This document shows, one piece after another, positions 30,877 to 58,976 of a stretch of DNA of 64,000 bases. The translations under genes and the position numbers were made by a program. Each line of letters begins with the position of its first letter. Position 1 is the first letter of the stretch. Origin of the DNA: Eledone cirrhosa (Eukaryota); assembly GCA_964016885.1 (NCBI GenBank), contig OZ024741.1, positions 383,718,001-383,782,000 of the forward strand. The letters run 5' to 3'. The notes beneath the pieces are model-generated. The model was not told the DNA's origin. It did not search any database and worked only from the letters and a program-made list of their open reading frames with translations.

Positions 30877-31631
30877 TACTATAGAGTAAAGCATGTCCAG
30901 AGAATTATTTGATAATATATATACATCATCTCTACTCCCAATCAGCATAATTAACCACACAAAAAATCAATTAGACCAGGCTATAAGAATAAAAGGCACC
31001 TATGAAGAAACAGTAAATAAATACGCCACAGCAGCGTCTTCGCGTGCAACCGCTATAGAATATTTACCCAACATTTCAACAGCACGTGGAAATTAATTAA
31101 ATATACGGTCAACCGTACATAATTAGGTAAAAATTAATGTTAGAAATGCTTATATACATACCAGGACTAAATCACTAAATCCCGACCCTAGGGTTTCGCT
31201 TACTTTTGAGATACCTTATTCAGGTTAATACTCGAGTTTTAGAGCTCTTCAGGGGATAAACTCGCTAGGACATATTATTTTCAGAAGTGGCCCCTGCCAA
31301 ACACGAATTCAAAATGGTTGAGAACTGTGACGTGGCAGTGGTCAAGTCAGGAAGGGTGTGATTGGTTGCTTACGGCGAGTGGGTTGGTGGCTAGAAAGCG
31401 CAGCCCAATATCGCCCAAATTTTTATCTCAACCTTATGGGAGATTATTAAATATAAATATTTACACATACACCAATTAAACAAAGTCACAGATATATATG
31501 TGTTTTGGCAACTGTTCACGATGTGGCTCAATTATTTGCTCTGATTATTTAATTTATTAATTCTCCATTGAGCCCCAAAACACATATATACCTGTGACAT
31601 TGTTTAATTGGTGTATGTGTAAATATTTATA
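30877..31631 (-). mobile_element. ~690 nt HHR unit family, copy A (main arm 30877-31532, inverted arm 31533-31631)
   Basis: Highly similar to 58405-58976 but starts at a different point; related to 32774-34160; between TA tracts. Confidence 0.85.
31179..31257 (-). ncRNA. Type I hammerhead ribozyme motif
   Basis: ATCCC-CTGAAGA-GCT...AGC-GAAAC-CCTAGG-GTC-GGGAT; complete core, perfect stem I, palindromic stem III. Confidence 0.88.
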
Positions 31632-32035
31632 CATTATATATACATATATATGTATAATATATATATATATAAAATACATAATGTATACATACGATATAAT
31701 ATATATATATATATATATATATATATATATATATATATATATATATATATATATACAGTTCAAGAGTAACCAATCTTAAAGAGAGAGATGGAGATAGGAG
31801 AGGAGATAGGAGAGGAGAGATTGGTGAATTAGTTAGAAGCCAAAGCGTAAAGGCATGTGCTCAATGTGCAATATGCAGTAGAAAGCAGCTAGGTGGCTGG
31901 GTTCATGCAGAAGTTAGGCGCGCAGAGCTGGAAATATTCATTAGTTAAGCAAAACAAGACCACAAATTTCACAAGGAAGACATTATTAAAAGATTGTCAA
32001 CATATTTTAGTTTGATGTAAGGAATGTAGAGAATA

Positions 32036-32468
32036 ATAATAATAATATTAATAACAATAATGTCCGTTTACAATTGTTTCGCTACTCCATATAATATGTC
32101 TGGATCAGATGACTATATATCATTATTGATCTCACACAATGCAGCCTCTCACACAATGCAGATCTCACACAATGCAGATCTCACACAATGCAACCTCGAC
32201 AGATGAATACTGCTTGATTATGGCTGACAATTGATACAATTAGGACACCATAGTGAAATACCAATATATGGAACATTACATTATGTAACATTCTCTCCTT
32301 ATTTTAATTTATATTCCTTTGAAGTTCCGATGAGCTGCTCTGTTTTTAAATATGTTAATTATTTTCAACTGAACCAGATCAATAATGATATATACTCATC
32401 TGATCCAGGAATATTATATGGAGTAGCGAAACAATTGTAAACGGACATTATTATTATTAATAGTATTA
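32036..32468 (+). mobile_element. HHR element with short inverted arm (32036-32132 mirrors 32376-32468) in (AAT)n
   Basis: Reverse-complement arms; four ~16 bp CTCACACAATGCA repeats at the junction. Confidence 0.7.
32324..32442 (+). ncRNA. Hammerhead-like motif with CCGATGA core and long stem II loop
   Basis: GTT-CCGATGA-GCTGCTCTGT...ATGGAGTAGC-GAAAC-AATT-GTA-AAC; 10 bp stem II. Confidence 0.6.
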
Positions 32469-54996: not shown

Positions 54997-57470
54997 GTTT
55001 GCTCGATTGTTCGGGGGGGGGGGGAGTGGTGGGTCAGAGACGGTAGTGGACTTCAGTCCCTACCTCGACGGCTTGCCACGCCTCTGGACGGCCGACGCTG
55101 AGTGCTGCGAAAGGCCGATAACTTCAACCGAAATTCAGGATTCTCTTGTCGGCTGCGCGAGGCGCAAGTCACCCAGTTTGAATGGTCTACCCTACGAGCT
55201 TTACGAAAATATACCACACTTGTTCTCCGATTTCCTCGAAGCGCTCTACTGCAATTCGCAGAAGAACGGGAGTATTCCCAGTTCTGTGAGCCGGGGCGTA
55301 GTGACGCTGATAAAGAAAGACGAGAACAATAAGGATACATTAGATAACTTCAGGCCCATAACTCTGCTCAATACAGAGTTTAAGATGTTGGCCAAGGTGT
55401 TAGCGAAGAGGCTGGCGCTTGGCGTCGAGGATTTGGTTGGGGGGGGCGCAAACTTGCGCAATCCCGACCAGGTCCATAGACGATAACCTCGACTTCATGC
55501 GATACTTCATAGAGATGGTAGAGTGTAAACCTGGCTTCGGTGCGGATCTGATCAATTTAGATCAATCGAAAGCATTCGATAGGGTCCACCATCGGTACCT
55601 GGAGGCTATCCCCAAGGCAGCTGGCTTCGGCCCCGTCTTCAGAAGCTCGATCGCTGCAATGGACAGCGGTATCTGCTCGGTGGTCAAAGTTAAGGGCAAC
55701 CTCTCGGAACCGTTTCAGATCTCTCAATCGGTCGGTCAAGGGTGCCCTCTCTCCTGCCTTCTGTACGTATTGACTCTCGAGCCTTTACTGTGGAAGCTGG
55801 AGCTGTTGCGGAGTATCCCTCTCGAACCGAGACGCGGAAAGGCTGTGTCAGCTTATGCGGACGAAATCACTGTGATTGTGTTGGACACCTTGGAAATCGA
55901 GGTAGTCGGCACCTTATTGGAAGAATATTAAAGGTTGACGGGAGCAAAACTTAACCCTGAAAAGTAGTTGGGCTTGCAACTCGGCACCTGAAGAGGCAAG
56001 TTCATGCCGTCCAACAGTGTCGCTGGGCGCTGGACGGACGGACCGGTAAAGTTTCTCGGGGTTTGGTTCGGGCCAGATCTCCAGAAGGATAATAATTGGG
56101 ACGATGTGACGGGCAGGATAGCCAATCTCACCCAAAAATGGGCAGCGAGGAAGCTATCCCTGAAAGGTCGGGTGGAGGTGGCAAATGTGTACATCGCGTT
56201 CGTCATCGACTACCGCCTAAACGTCGTGCCTTGCCCCGTCCGCCCCTCGCCAACTTGGAACGGCGCCTCTTCCCATTTTTGTGGAGGGGACAGGTTCCGT
56301 TGGTGAGGCGGTCCATCTGTTGAAGCACCCTATACGCGGAGGGCTGGGTATGCCGTGGCTAATGATGCTCAGACATGGGCTGAGGCTCGGTCATCTCCAG
56401 ATATTCTGCCTAAACGGTGAACATGATGGTCGCCGTTTGTCGGACGGGTCATTCCGCAGCTCGTCTCTTTGACTGAGCTGCAATCCTGGGTCAAGAAGAG
56501 ACCGAGACTGGCTGAGTGGCATCTGGAATGTTGCCAGGCACTCACTGCCCTCTACCAGGCGGGAAATGCGGTCAGTGGAACTTCCACTCTCGAGTTCTAT
56601 AGAGGATTAGTGGTGGGCAATTGCGATGTCGCACACGGAGAGATTCTGGGCGTCGACAAAACCGAACTAACCAGTCTGTTCCGGAGGACTTTCGAGCCGG
56701 GGATGATGGATAACTTCCAAAAATCCCTCGCTTGGCAGTGCTACCGGGGGGGGGGCACTGCCGGTTTGAGATGAACTCTACAGGTACGGAAGTGCTGTCA
56801 GATGGACTAGCCTGAGATGCGCGCAGTGCGACGAGACCGTTCTGCACGCACTCATCCAGTGTCCATGCATTACTGACTTGTGGTGTTATGTCGAACAGCT
56901 GTTGTCGTGTGTAGAACGGATCCGGCTATAGTCCATATCCATAGTGAAGATCGACCCGCCGCCTTCTTTTGTCCAGGAAGGGCAGGCAATTTTCCTCTGT
57001 CTTGTTGCAGTAGTGAAAGATGTATGGTGGACCAGGTTGAAAGGACTGAAGACAGACCCTTTTCTCTTCAGCCAATCACTCATCAACTTTTTCAAGTTTC
57101 ACTTGGAAAGGAAGTTGAGGGTGGATAGAGAAGGCTGCCCCCCCCCCCCCCCCCACCAGTACATTTTTGCTGAAAGGTGGGTGGCGAGAATGGCCCGTGT
57201 GAGCTTACTTTGATCATGCGCCTGTAGGCTGGTGAATTTTAAGGAGAGGGGTGCCCATTCCGGGTGCTCACGAAGCGTTGAGAGGTTCAGGATTGGTGGG
57301 GCACCTGAATCAACCCTGGATGGTTATCCCCCCTATTGGTGAATTTTCATTGTTGTATTTTTCTTGTTTATTGTTATTGTTTTTCTATTTTTTACTCGAA
57401 TTTTGTGTAAAACCCCCACTGTCTTCTTCTATTGTATTGTCCCCTATATGTTGGCTCTTTTGGCCAGTAA
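54997..57470 (+). mobile_element. 5'-truncated, degraded Tx1/L1-type LINE related to 3724-7592
   Basis: DNFRPITLLN, DQSKAFDRV, QGCPLS, YADE; several stops and frameshifts; similar 3' end. Confidence 0.9.
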
Positions 57471-58404
57471 ATCAGCTAGCCAGCAAATGTCAATATAATA
57501 CTGAATATTAGCGAAAAGTAGAATATTTATGCTGACTTAATGAGGAGTCACAAAGACTATACCTTTATATTTGTACCTGAGATCATTAGGACACTTGGAT
57601 ATGATACTAGTTCAGTACAAATCTTGCGAAGCTGGGCTTCACAAAACCGGAAAGGAAAGGAGCCTATCTCAGAAACGGTCAAAGGAAACTAACTATCCCT
57701 ATTTCTATTGCTGGTATTAACTGCCTGTCAGAAAGAGGATGGATATGATCTCAGCGCTCTCACGACAGGATCAAATACTGGGTCTTTAATTATTCTGCCA
57801 ATCTACCGGCCCCAGAATGGTACTTTAGCTATCGAACTCGAATGGATAATAGGAGAATATTCCTATTGCAGTATTCGAACTTGGAATGCAGAGACCCGGA
57901 ATAGATATCGACGCTTTAACAACTCTGCCAATTCACCGCAGAAATTAAACCAAGCCCCCACATATTGAAATACATATATATACATATAGAATACACTTCA
58001 TCGCTGAATTCATTGTTTCTGGCGTGGAAGCGTATGAACACATGACATCCTCGTGAGTATGCTTGCAAATAAAGTATATGTGCGTTACGTTTTATACACC
58101 ATCCTTTATAAGTTGATTCTCAACTCTATTTTTAACATTGGTTTCGACAATTAGAGCACGTTCGACAATTCAAGCACATTTTTTCTTATTGACTTTTGTT
58201 GATTATATAAAATGTTTGTATTCCAGATATTTCGGTTCTCCCAACACCAGATCACTCTGAACCACAGTGTACACAGGTTTATGATTCTCTTTGCAACACC
58301 ACTAACAAAAGCAGTATTTCATCATAGACATCTACTATGATCATCTGACTACCAGAAGTACAATACGTCCAGGGTTATATATATATATATATATATATAT
58401 ACAC

Positions 58405-58976
58405 TACACCAATTAAACAAAGTCACAGGTATATATGTGTTTTGGCAACTATTCACGATGTGGCTCAATGAAGAATTAATAAATTAAACAATCAGAGCAA
58501 AATACTATATAGTAAAGCATGTCCAGAGAATTATTTGATAATATATATACATCATCTCTACTCCCAATCAGCATAATTAACCACACAAAAAATCAATTAG
58601 ACCAGGCTATAAGAATAAAAGGCACCTTTGAAGAAACAGTAAATAAATACGCCACAGCAGCGTCTTCGCGTGCAACCGCTATAGAATATTTACCCAACAT
58701 TTCCACAGCACGTGGAAATTAATTAAATATACGGTCAACAATACATAATTAGGTAAAATTAAAGTTAGAAATGCTTATATACATACCAGGATTAAATCAC
58801 TAAATCCCGACCCATGGGTTTCGCTCACTTTTGAGATACCTTATTAAGGATGAATCTCGAGTTTAGAGCTCTTCAGGGGACAAACTCGCTAGGACAGATT
58901 ATTTTTCGAAGTGGCCCCCGCCAAACACGAATTCAAAATGGTTGAGAACTGTGACGTGGCAGTGGTCAAGTCAGGA
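58405..58976 (-). mobile_element. ~690 nt HHR unit family, copy C (different permutation from copy A)
   Basis: Begins with the sequence that ends copy A, then runs into the sequence that begins copy A; abuts (TA)n. Confidence 0.85.
58804..58881 (-). ncRNA. Type I hammerhead ribozyme motif
   Basis: GTCCC-CTGAAGA-GCTC...GAGC-GAAAC-CCATGG-GTC-GGGAT. Confidence 0.88.

Follow-up and report, generated by a model that had tools for sequence, protein, structure and literature searches.

The 64,000 nucleotides of Eledone cirrhosa DNA analysed here (the window) carry four copies, A, B, B', and C, of a type I hammerhead motif in which helix III plus its loop is self-complementary in 4/4 copies, and whose stem pairs differ between subfamilies in a way that argues for selection on RNA structure (Table 1). 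The observations as a whole are probably best explained by a non-autonomous, retrozyme-like family mobilised by a Penelope-type enzyme, with a unit of 650–690 nt, one type I hammerhead, and a selected structure; our confidence is high in the element type (retrozyme-like, non-autonomous, Penelope-mobilised) together with selection on structure. A palindromic, covarying helix III has already been published (PMC3088659, PMC4209133), and the finding is thus correct, not new in kind.

Table 1. Hammerhead motifs, repeat units, and Penelope-like remnants in the window (positions of the window; orientation as strand)
Feature	Position	Strand	Remarks
Element A, main arm	30880..31532	-	~689-nt non-coding unit; 3' end in (TA)n tract
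Hammerhead copy A	31179..31257	-	Type I; stem I 5 bp, 40-nt loop II; core starts at 31252
Copy A core	31252-31246 and 31197-31194	-	
Copy A helix III palindrome	31194-31185	-	Predicted cut between 31184 and 31183
Loop II start in A	31233..31239	-	Partner strand of candidate pseudoknot
5' flank of stem I in A	31258..31264	-	Candidate pseudoknot strand, complementary to loop II start
Element A, short inverted arm	31535..31622	+	3' end in (TA)n tract
Element B	32776..33453	-	659-nt unit + 25-nt terminal direct repeat; 3' end in (TA)n
Hammerhead copy B	33158..33235	-	Type I, divergent subfamily; core starts at 33230; predicted cut between 33163 and 33162
Element B'	33454..34156	+	649-nt unit + 58-nt terminal direct repeat; 3' end in (TA)n
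Hammerhead copy B'	33804..33881	+	Type I; core starts at 33809; predicted cut between 33876 and 33877
Element C	58402..58979	-	5'-truncated, 95% identical to A; 3' end in (TA)n
Hammerhead copy C	58804..58881	-	Type I, subfamily of A; core starts at 58876; predicted cut between 58809 and 58808
ACTAGT motif	15023	-	
AATT motif	42559	-	
AGCT motifs	50576 and 43854	+ and -	
Second Penelope-like remnant	42493..43160	-	C-terminal endonuclease end (42751-43160), then AATT hammerhead (42564-42525) and (TA)n tract
Broken Penelope-like element	43773..50657		Two arms, back to back, with 99% identity over 3197 bp

The type I core (CUGANGA, GAAA, UH) is intact in 4/4 copies, with all 11 fixed core nucleotides kept; the copies differ in the core only at N7 and H17, which are free positions of the hammerhead core. 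On the minus strand helix III reads A-CCCTAGGG-T in A, A-CCCATGGG-T in C, and A-CCATGG-T in B, and the palindromic strings reported by the initial annotation for these copies are all present. A fourth copy, B', which that annotation had overlooked, is identical to the motif of B on the opposite strand. The palindrome of C has AT at its centre, where A has TA; that of B is 8 nt long and is accompanied by four compensatory pairs. No extra nucleotide is found in A, B, or C, and the pair 10.1–11.1 is G-C in A and C, as described to be highly conserved (PMC4209133), whereas B has A-U there. Stem I is ATCCC/GGGAT in A, GTCCC/GGGAT in C, and GTCTC/GAGAT in B, and the base of stem II is GCT/AGC, GCTC/GAGC, and ATCC/GGAT, respectively. 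The letters of the stem changes from A to B had been read correctly, but in stem I they amount to a single two-sided change and an A-U pair turned into a G.U wobble, and stem II of A consists of 3 bp plus a C.A mismatch, while that of C is intact with 4 bp. The copies are also not minimal hammerheads: in these, helix III and loop 3 are absent apart from conserved nucleotides (PMC4209133), and helix III is 3 bp in A and C and 2 bp in B, plus a tetraloop. Of the palindromes mentioned for other families, AATT, AGCT, and ACTAGT were found, but the ACTAGT copy no longer has the U that precedes the cleavage site, and ATTAGT stands at this place in its two siblings.

Rfam returned no hammerhead match at the gathering score and none among the best 150 of 163 rows with E up to 5, which is probably due to the 40-nt loop II; the rows listed by E-value were rejected as microsatellite matches to microRNA models. 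A covariance model built from A and C detected no copies in the window beyond the four known, a pattern scan of viral contigs gave 0 matches, and 6 pattern matches in metagenome contigs were rejected, having neither BLAST similarity to the window nor a helix III/stem I.

How far chance alone can produce such motifs was assessed with two descriptors. The strict one had 8 matches in the window, 4 with a perfect palindrome, versus 1 match and 0 palindromes in 40 shuffles. The other, blind to loop 3 symmetry, its core having been widened for CCGA post hoc after the 50576 motif, misses A, 42559, and 59455; it had 11 matches, 8 of them self-complementary (5 Watson-Crick and 3 with G.U; 5 independent motifs and three inverted duplicates), versus 36 matches and 0 self-complementary ones in 100 shuffles.

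Among A, B, and C, the three distinct sequences, 35/36 paired stem cells are occupied by pairs and 4/12 pairs have changed on both sides, with the flanks diverging by 20–30%. This count was made on a structure-fitted alignment, the score of which was attained by 8/500 shuffles; with slid partners pairing was 19–52% versus the 97% observed. In plain MAFFT alignments B is shifted against the other copies at stem II and at helix III; these alignments were left out of the pair counts, and a third helix III pair of B in the fitted alignment is a fitting artefact. Since B is homologous to the family by its flanks (72%), it was not picked solely for its pairing. All four double changes fall on one split, B versus A/C, and the swap of the palindrome centre is one further event; a simple inversion as source of TA to AT is ruled out, TA being its own reverse complement. 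A and C differ at 9/78 positions inside the motif and at 12/392 outside (p = 0.003). In a neutral simulation at 20–35% divergence, the chance that 10/10 tested pairs are kept with at least four two-sided changes was 2.5e-6 to 5e-5, and the chance that core and pairs survive together 4.5e-5 to 4.6e-3. The selection on RNA structure proposed earlier is thus supported by the simulation, on the scale of three sequences and one lineage split, which is far below that of an R-scape test.

The switched palindrome centre is also present in sequencing reads. The two centre positions are switched in 718 and 795 of 932 depth in run X1, in 23 and 28 of 45 reads in X5, and in 22 and 23 of 37 in X6, one contig of X4 carries both changes, and the shares of both positions are similar in all four runs examined; these are marginal shares, not linkage, from ~8–10 start sites per run and from the 40 of 290 variant rows listed. 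Only one of the two changes is carried by at least 5/45 reads (X5), at least 7/37 (X6), and at least 8% of the depth in X1. The stem II mismatch of A is missing from 987/1004 depth in X1. Reads containing the joint of the unit ends number 20 in X5 and 7 in X6; no read or contig piece of the runs spans a whole unit. In X1 the depth over some unit segments exceeds that over the hammerhead part by a factor of hundreds, read depth not being taken as copy number.

The helix III hairpin is predicted at −1.3 (A), −0.4 (C), and +2.9 kcal/mol (B), the self-duplex at −18.0, −17.8, and −11.2 kcal/mol, respectively, and the strand-swapped dimer is predicted to be 15.4–17.0 kcal/mol better than two monomer folds. 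With the units of B and B' folded in circular form, the probability of the helix III pairs is 0.003–0.005. Minimum-energy folds with flanks lack the active fold; without flanks the active monomer fold reaches 18% in C and 1.3% in A, a monomer helix III being possible in A/C. A mixed A-C dimer is predicted at −9.8 kcal/mol versus −15.4 and −17.0 for the like dimers, and the swap of the palindrome centre makes sense only in a dimer, which favours the dimer reading. The idea that a palindromic helix III serves dimer cleavage has been in print since 2011–2014, and on these predictions it is, in our view, somewhat more probable than its alternatives taken together that dimer cleavage is the reason for the palindrome here. 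As to the earlier proposal that cleavage is favoured in multimeric transcripts, the predicted pairing energy speaks for it, but each copy has only one ribozyme per strand, and no strand of the 64-kb window carries two of these family ribozymes in tandem, and in vitro 8/9 retrozyme dimers showed no cleavage (preprint 10.64898/2026.07.22.740005); the proposal may be called plausible.

Alternatively, the ribozymes could act as monomers aided by a pseudoknot between stem I and loop II, the palindrome being inherited or its symmetry maintained by template switching in the course of copying, with no selection for dimers. In its favour, helix III of A and C has 3 bp and its hairpin energy is negative, the window copies have one ribozyme per strand, and single retrozyme copies from coral and mussel self-cleave in vitro at ~0.8 and 0.1 per min (PMC7229834). 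The candidate pseudoknot, 7 bp in A and C and 5 bp in B, is conserved and was found post hoc; it lies where a circularly permuted form of the type II pseudoknot of PMC3088659 would fall, and the p of such a flank/loop II complement is ~0.004–0.005 in A and C and 0.04–0.06 in B. The pseudoknot of PMC3088659 likewise joins nucleotides after the 5' strand of stem II to those beside stem I, but it was tested in a type II metagenome ribozyme and in a human one, while the candidate here belongs to a repeat-borne type I motif; in the "PK hammerhead" (PMC11300833), unlike here, the pseudoknot replaces helix II. The monomer alternative is unlikely, since at least 5 unrelated motifs have self-complementary loops with different letters, which a monomer does not need, since the hairpin of B is unstable, and since the pseudoknot pairs do not covary among A, B, and C. 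The candidate pseudoknot competes with an extension of loop II. Distal loop II helices were not accepted as evidence, their register differing between the copies and the X4 contig breaking two of their pairs.

The units themselves (GC 0.33–0.36) are circularly permuted. B closes on itself after 659 nt, B' after 649 nt, and A plus C after 689 nt, and C extends ~100 nt beyond the main 3' end of A into A's starting sequence. The copies comprise 0.8–1.1 units and are dispersed; a TA-rich tract is found at the 3' end of 5/5 arms, at two unit positions ~100 nt apart. B and B' stand back to back and differ by 10 substitutions in 573 aligned bases (1.7%). A head-to-tail tandem of at least two ribozyme-bearing units of this family is absent from the window, and A, B, B', and C are probably dead genomic copies.

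A possible mobiliser is found between B' and C. The broken Penelope-like element encodes a reverse transcriptase (RT) with YRDD, a cysteine linker, and a GIY-YIG end, and each of its arms has near the 3' end a hammerhead (50576+, 43854−) with an AGCT palindrome and a CCGA core variant. The assignment to Penelope rests on motifs, Atlas matches, and homologues; with Pfam the Penelope RT was not detected and GIY-YIG appeared below cut-off only. Penelope-type protein matches in the window are confined to 42751–43160 and 45311–49119. No DNA similarity was found between the A/B/C units and either Penelope remnant, and the element is a candidate for the kind of mobiliser that A/B/C have used. The units do have the features of Penelope-type insertions (PMC8557442, PMC11167929), namely 5'-truncated and inverted arms, an optional tail, and TA microsatellite targets.

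From this a cycle can be proposed. Source loci would yield tandem RNA or RNA of more than unit length, which the hammerhead would trim to unit length, best when two hammerheads swap strands and the palindrome forms one 8–10-bp helix III; a lone or circular monomer would mostly stay uncut. A Penelope RT/GIY-YIG enzyme would then nick (TA)n and copy a template continuous across the cut site, i.e., a circle or a multimer left uncut, with copying initiated at either of two sites ~280–305 and 390–410 nt downstream of the cut. If only RNAs with a working fold are propagated, subfamilies would come to differ by covarying pairs, and the individual copies in the genome would decay.

The palindrome could instead be mainly a handle by which two element RNAs pair in trans within an integration complex of two RNAs and two RTs, cleavage being protein-assisted or secondary. 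A solo copy has nothing to pair with in cis, the sequence of all four copies continues across a cleavage site that was not cut, and the insertions of A, B/B', and the large Penelope have two arms each, whose 3' ends point outward. Moreover, the Penelope protein of the anole, when purified, nicks both strands and extends them and is a predicted dimer, and its hammerhead cleaved only with the protein and was dispensable for insertion in vitro (PMC11167929). We nevertheless regard this as quite improbable: similar inverted insertions also arise from Naiad elements, which lack canonical hammerheads (PMC8557442), the 1.7% difference between B and B' can be explained by later drift, and the catalytic core is conserved as expected where cleavage matters.

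It is very doubtful that the units are the 5'-truncated pseudo-LTR ends of an autonomous Penelope with its open reading frame (ORF) outside the window. Two hammerhead-bearing Penelope remnants are present in the window, most Penelope insertions are 5'-truncated with the terminal repeat alone kept (preprint 10.64898/2026.07.22.740005), and the segment depth in X1 implies many unseen relatives. Against this, the units close on themselves and leave no room for an ORF, the longest stop-free stretch is 65–78 codons, an RT plus GIY-YIG ORF is absent from A/B/B'/C, and 0/120 Penelope-type proteins matched A/B/C. That the motifs are short AT-rich chance matches in a repeat without ribozyme history, for which the missing Rfam gathering-score match and the inactive minimum-energy folds with flanks might be quoted, is effectively refuted by the shuffle, simulation, and slid-partner controls.

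Several known systems can be compared with the retrozyme-like family favoured here. Metazoan non-LTR retrozymes (Cervera and de la Pena, 2020, PMC7229834; Li, Clavereau, and Pollet, 2026, 10.64898/2026.07.22.740005) share with it a non-coding, low-GC (33–36%) unit, one type I hammerhead, a short helix III with tetraloop, and the co-occurrence of Penelope-like elements. Their unit range of 51–972 bp includes the units here, which exceed the 150–450 bp first described, and dispersed monomers are common there too. Retrozymes form tandem arrays, however, whereas the window family is seen only as dispersed copies and back-to-back pairs; the 40-nt loop II also differs, and linear and circular monomer RNAs belong to the retrozyme class. 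The pseudo-LTR hammerheads of Penelope-like elements (Cervera and de la Pena, 2014; PMC4209133) share the type I topology, a stem I of 4–5 bp, a small palindromic helix III, covariation-rich families, and high motif variability within a genome; they occur as pairs 100–700 bp apart on opposite strands, and the cores of B and B' are 579 bp apart. In the repeat-type hammerhead of Aedes aegypti (Perreault et al., 2011; PMC3088659, legend of Figure S8), loop III pairs fully in the dimer to give a 10-bp stem, like A and C, and stem and loop III are palindromic across variants; organism and sequence are different. Finally, the Anolis Poseidon element PAc (Frangieh et al., 2024; PMC11167929) has AT-rich targets, priming on both strands, and, downstream of its hammerhead, two sites where reverse transcription can start, which gives an optional "tail," as here, but it is autonomous with a hammerhead overlapping the start codon, and the Penelope tail is described as 30–40 bp whereas the two unit ends here lie ~100 nt apart.

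The family adds one more animal example to the published pattern of palindromic, covarying helices III in Penelope-linked hammerheads. Modest additions to it are the candidate pseudoknot between stem I and loop II and the variants of the palindrome, which could block cross-pairing of subfamilies. A, C, and B form a natural test set from one family, with matched and mismatched palindromes, the candidate pseudoknot, and copies of more than unit length, which lets cleavage of monomers, like dimers, and mixed dimers be set side by side in natural sequences. Speculatively, and with little probability at present, the palindrome might be a subfamily barcode: a change of its centre (TA to AT) or length would keep self-pairing and penalise pairing with a sister subfamily, each subfamily would cleave or be co-packaged only with RNAs of its own, solo transcripts meeting in trans, and the pseudoknot would provide the tertiary contact. 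This would account for the fast turnover of the motif and for the double-armed insertions; among titles on related terms (not a targeted search) none with this idea was found. The function of Penelope hammerheads has been termed unclear (PMC8557442), with one dispensable in vitro (PMC11167929); if the barcode were true, the hammerhead would be a self-recognition device of competing non-autonomous elements.

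The DNA of the window is of animal type, AT-rich, with many microsatellites and with LINE fragments, and a scan for the hammerhead core found four motifs in it, three on the minus strand (A, B and C) and one on the plus strand (B'). Core scan and stem readout show the three minus-strand motifs with the stems quoted in the initial annotation, which had overlooked B', a motif identical to that of B. A strict type I descriptor found eight motifs in the window, four with a perfect helix III palindrome; on 40 block-wise dinucleotide shuffles it gave one match and no palindrome. A descriptor blind to loop symmetry, which misses A, 42559 and 59455 and whose core was widened after the motif at 50576 had been seen, found 11 motifs, eight of them self-complementary (five independent ones without inverted duplicates), and on 100 shuffles 36 matches, none self-complementary. 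A search of the window with Rfam gave no match at the gathering score. The palindromes AATT, AGCT and ACTAGT, attributed earlier to other families, do exist in the window, except that the U preceding the cut site is missing from the ACTAGT copy, whose siblings read ATTAGT. Helix III of the pair at 15832–16460, TATGTA, requires a G.U pair for self-complementarity, and the hammerhead at 59385–59463 is of monomer-type design. The degenerate cores may be old copies or chance. The tandem array is possibly a decayed retrozyme satellite, and the ~230-bp repeat presumably resembles octopus SINEs.

Hammerhead motifs, Penelope remnants and other repeats in the window
Feature	Position	Strand or copies	Description
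Hammerhead A	31179-31257	-	type I
Hammerhead B	33158-33235	-	type I
Hammerhead B'	33804-33881	+	type I
Hammerhead C	58804-58881	-	type I
Type I hammerhead	59385-59463	-	8-bp stem I; long non-palindromic helix III; in a different repeat
Small hammerhead family	14949-15714	15023-, 15048+, 15555+	three copies; 15023-/15048+ fused back to back within 25 nt
Inverted pair with hammerhead-like motifs	15832-16460	15933-, 16359+	ends in (TA)n
AATT hammerhead	40869-40939	+	partial second copy; damaged 5' core
Degenerate hammerhead-like cores	37204, 59089	- / -	partial stems; core scan and descriptor
Broken Penelope-like element	43773-50657	two back-to-back arms	3197-bp inverted pair, 99% identical; RT, cysteine linker, GIY-YIG end
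Tandem array	62251-64000	>3 copies	528-bp unit, 96% identical, ends in (TA)n; each unit with hammerhead-like core, weak stems, duplicated 36-bp 3' half
SINE-like repeat, ~230 bp	18107-18249, 22111-22341, 27619-27832, 32445-32675, 53309-53440, 59691-59911	six copies	
Broken LINE copies	3856-7198, 55047-57139	two, related	74% identical; endonuclease, RT, zf-RVT domains
Inverted repeat	12924-13298		375 bp, near-perfect, 92%

When the four copies, three of them distinct, are aligned to fit the structure, 35 of 36 cells are paired; in slid controls pairing is 19–52%. Two-sided changes are found in 4 of the 12 pairs, a single one of them in stem I and the other three in stem II; another pair has become G.U, and A has one broken pair. 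The covariation result was matched by 8 of 500 shuffles of the alignment. It should be noted that the four double changes represent one lineage split because all of them separate B from A and C. B and C diverge by 20–30% in flanks and loop II, and in a neutral simulation at 20–35% change all 10 tested pairs were kept with at least four double changes in 2.5e-6 to 5e-5 of the trials, and core and pairs were kept jointly in 4.5e-5 to 4.6e-3. The selection on RNA structure that had been proposed is therefore supported by the compensatory pairs, with thin sampling. Between A and C, 9 of 78 positions differ within the motif and 12 of 392 outside, which agrees with the high motif variability reported in the accessible part of PMC4209133.

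One further double change is that of the palindrome centre from TA in A to AT in C. In the monomer hairpin the centre is part of the loop, so that complementarity would be needed only in the dimer. Reads of four sequencing runs were compared with A at 80% likeness. The two centre positions are switched in 718 and 795 of 932 depth (X1), in 31.8/34.9 from one contig (X4), in 23 and 28 of 45 reads (X5) and in 22 and 23 of 37 reads (X6), these being marginal counts from about 8–10 start sites that do not prove linkage. At least 5 of the 45 reads from X5 and at least 7 of the 37 from X6 carry just one centre change, as for decaying copies. Among the 40 of 290 read variants on A that were listed, the stem II mismatch of A is nearly private, the paired base being present in 987 of 1004 X1 depth. 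Reads cover the hammerhead hundreds of times less deeply than the best-conserved flank. Loop II holds another TA/AT difference at neighbouring positions of A and C (31229–31230), and the two positions have the same read counts in each of the four runs; it may be a one-base slip, and doublet differences thus arise outside the palindrome too.

The carrier elements of A and C share 95% identity, with B at 72%. B consists of a 659-nt unit plus a 25-nt terminal repeat and B' of a 649-nt unit plus 58 nt; A and C together close a 689-nt circle, and the unit-end joint was found in 20 reads of X5 and 7 of X6. The units have a GC content of 33–36% and a longest stop-free stretch of 78 codons, and none of 120 Penelope-type proteins matched them. 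A TA-rich tract stands at the end of all five arms, which end at two positions, ~280–305 and 390–410 nt beyond the cut site; B adjoins B' back to back, and a short arm of A is inverted. TA-rich ends and inverted arms are among the marks of Penelope-type integration as described in the accessible parts of PMC8557442 and PMC11167929. Because the cut site is intact and read through in each copy, the template was either circular or a longer RNA left uncut, with both of which the copies are equally compatible. In both arms of the broken Penelope-like element a stop separates the RT region from the endonuclease region, and the hammerhead core of each shows the same CCGA variant; stop and variant must therefore already have been in the template. 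The window also holds a second endonuclease remnant, and the two Penelope-type remnants have the AGCT and the AATT hammerhead at their 3' ends. Named homologues of the Penelope-type protein include two octopod entries (35–41% identity), but cnidarian and unnamed proteins score alike, so that an octopod mollusc is weakly suggested as the probable host. DNA similarity between A, B or C and either remnant was not found, so that the mobiliser is assigned by type only.

Are these hammerheads cleaved as dimers? Helix III is predicted to be weak as a monomer hairpin (A −1.3, C −0.4, B +2.9 kcal/mol) and strong as a self-duplex (−18.0, −17.8 and −11.2 kcal/mol, respectively), and a strand-swapped dimer is predicted to be better than two monomer folds by 15.4–17.0 kcal/mol (mixed A-C dimer, 9.8). 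When the units of B and B' are folded as circles, folds whose stability exceeds that of 25 shuffles per circle (z −2.8 and −2.4), helix III almost never forms (probability 0.003–0.005). Dimer cleavage is thus plausible, and these predictions favour, with moderate confidence, a reading in which multimeric RNA would be processed by paired hammerheads and the monomer spared. Against it stands that A, B and C are not minimal hammerheads as PMC4209133 defines them in the part available, and that no strand in the window has two such ribozymes in one element. A single retrozyme copy from coral or from mussel cleaves by itself, according to the accessible part of PMC7229834, which also describes axolotl motifs that perform better as dimers. 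Excerpts of two further sources speak against dimer processing: 8 of the 9 retrozyme dimers from frogs failed to cleave (preprint 10.64898/2026.07.22.740005), and an anole hammerhead required protein and was dispensable for insertion (PMC11167929).

A candidate pseudoknot, absent from the initial annotation and discovered post hoc, could speed the monomer or act as an inhibitory hairpin. The 7 nt preceding stem I are complementary to the start of loop II, with 7 bp in A and C (p ~0.004–0.005 by two nulls) and 5 bp in B (p 0.04–0.06). Covariation within it was not found in A, B and C, and flank/loop II pairing in six other motifs was nothing notable. The pairing is a circular permutation of the pseudoknot in the accessible part of PMC3088659 and differs from the form in that of PMC11300833.

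Our literature search, of limited reach, found no paper that has cephalopod hammerheads or retrozymes as its subject. In the parts available, PMC4209133 is explicit that Penelope-linked hammerheads show covarying families and a helix III that is palindromic, PMC3088659 gives in its Figure S8 legend a 10-bp dimer helix with palindromic loop III variants, and the review PMC6765202 summarizes dimer cleavage, citing Lunse et al. 2016. The palindromic, covarying helix III of Penelope-linked hammerheads is thus a pattern already known, to which A, B, B' and C add a family.
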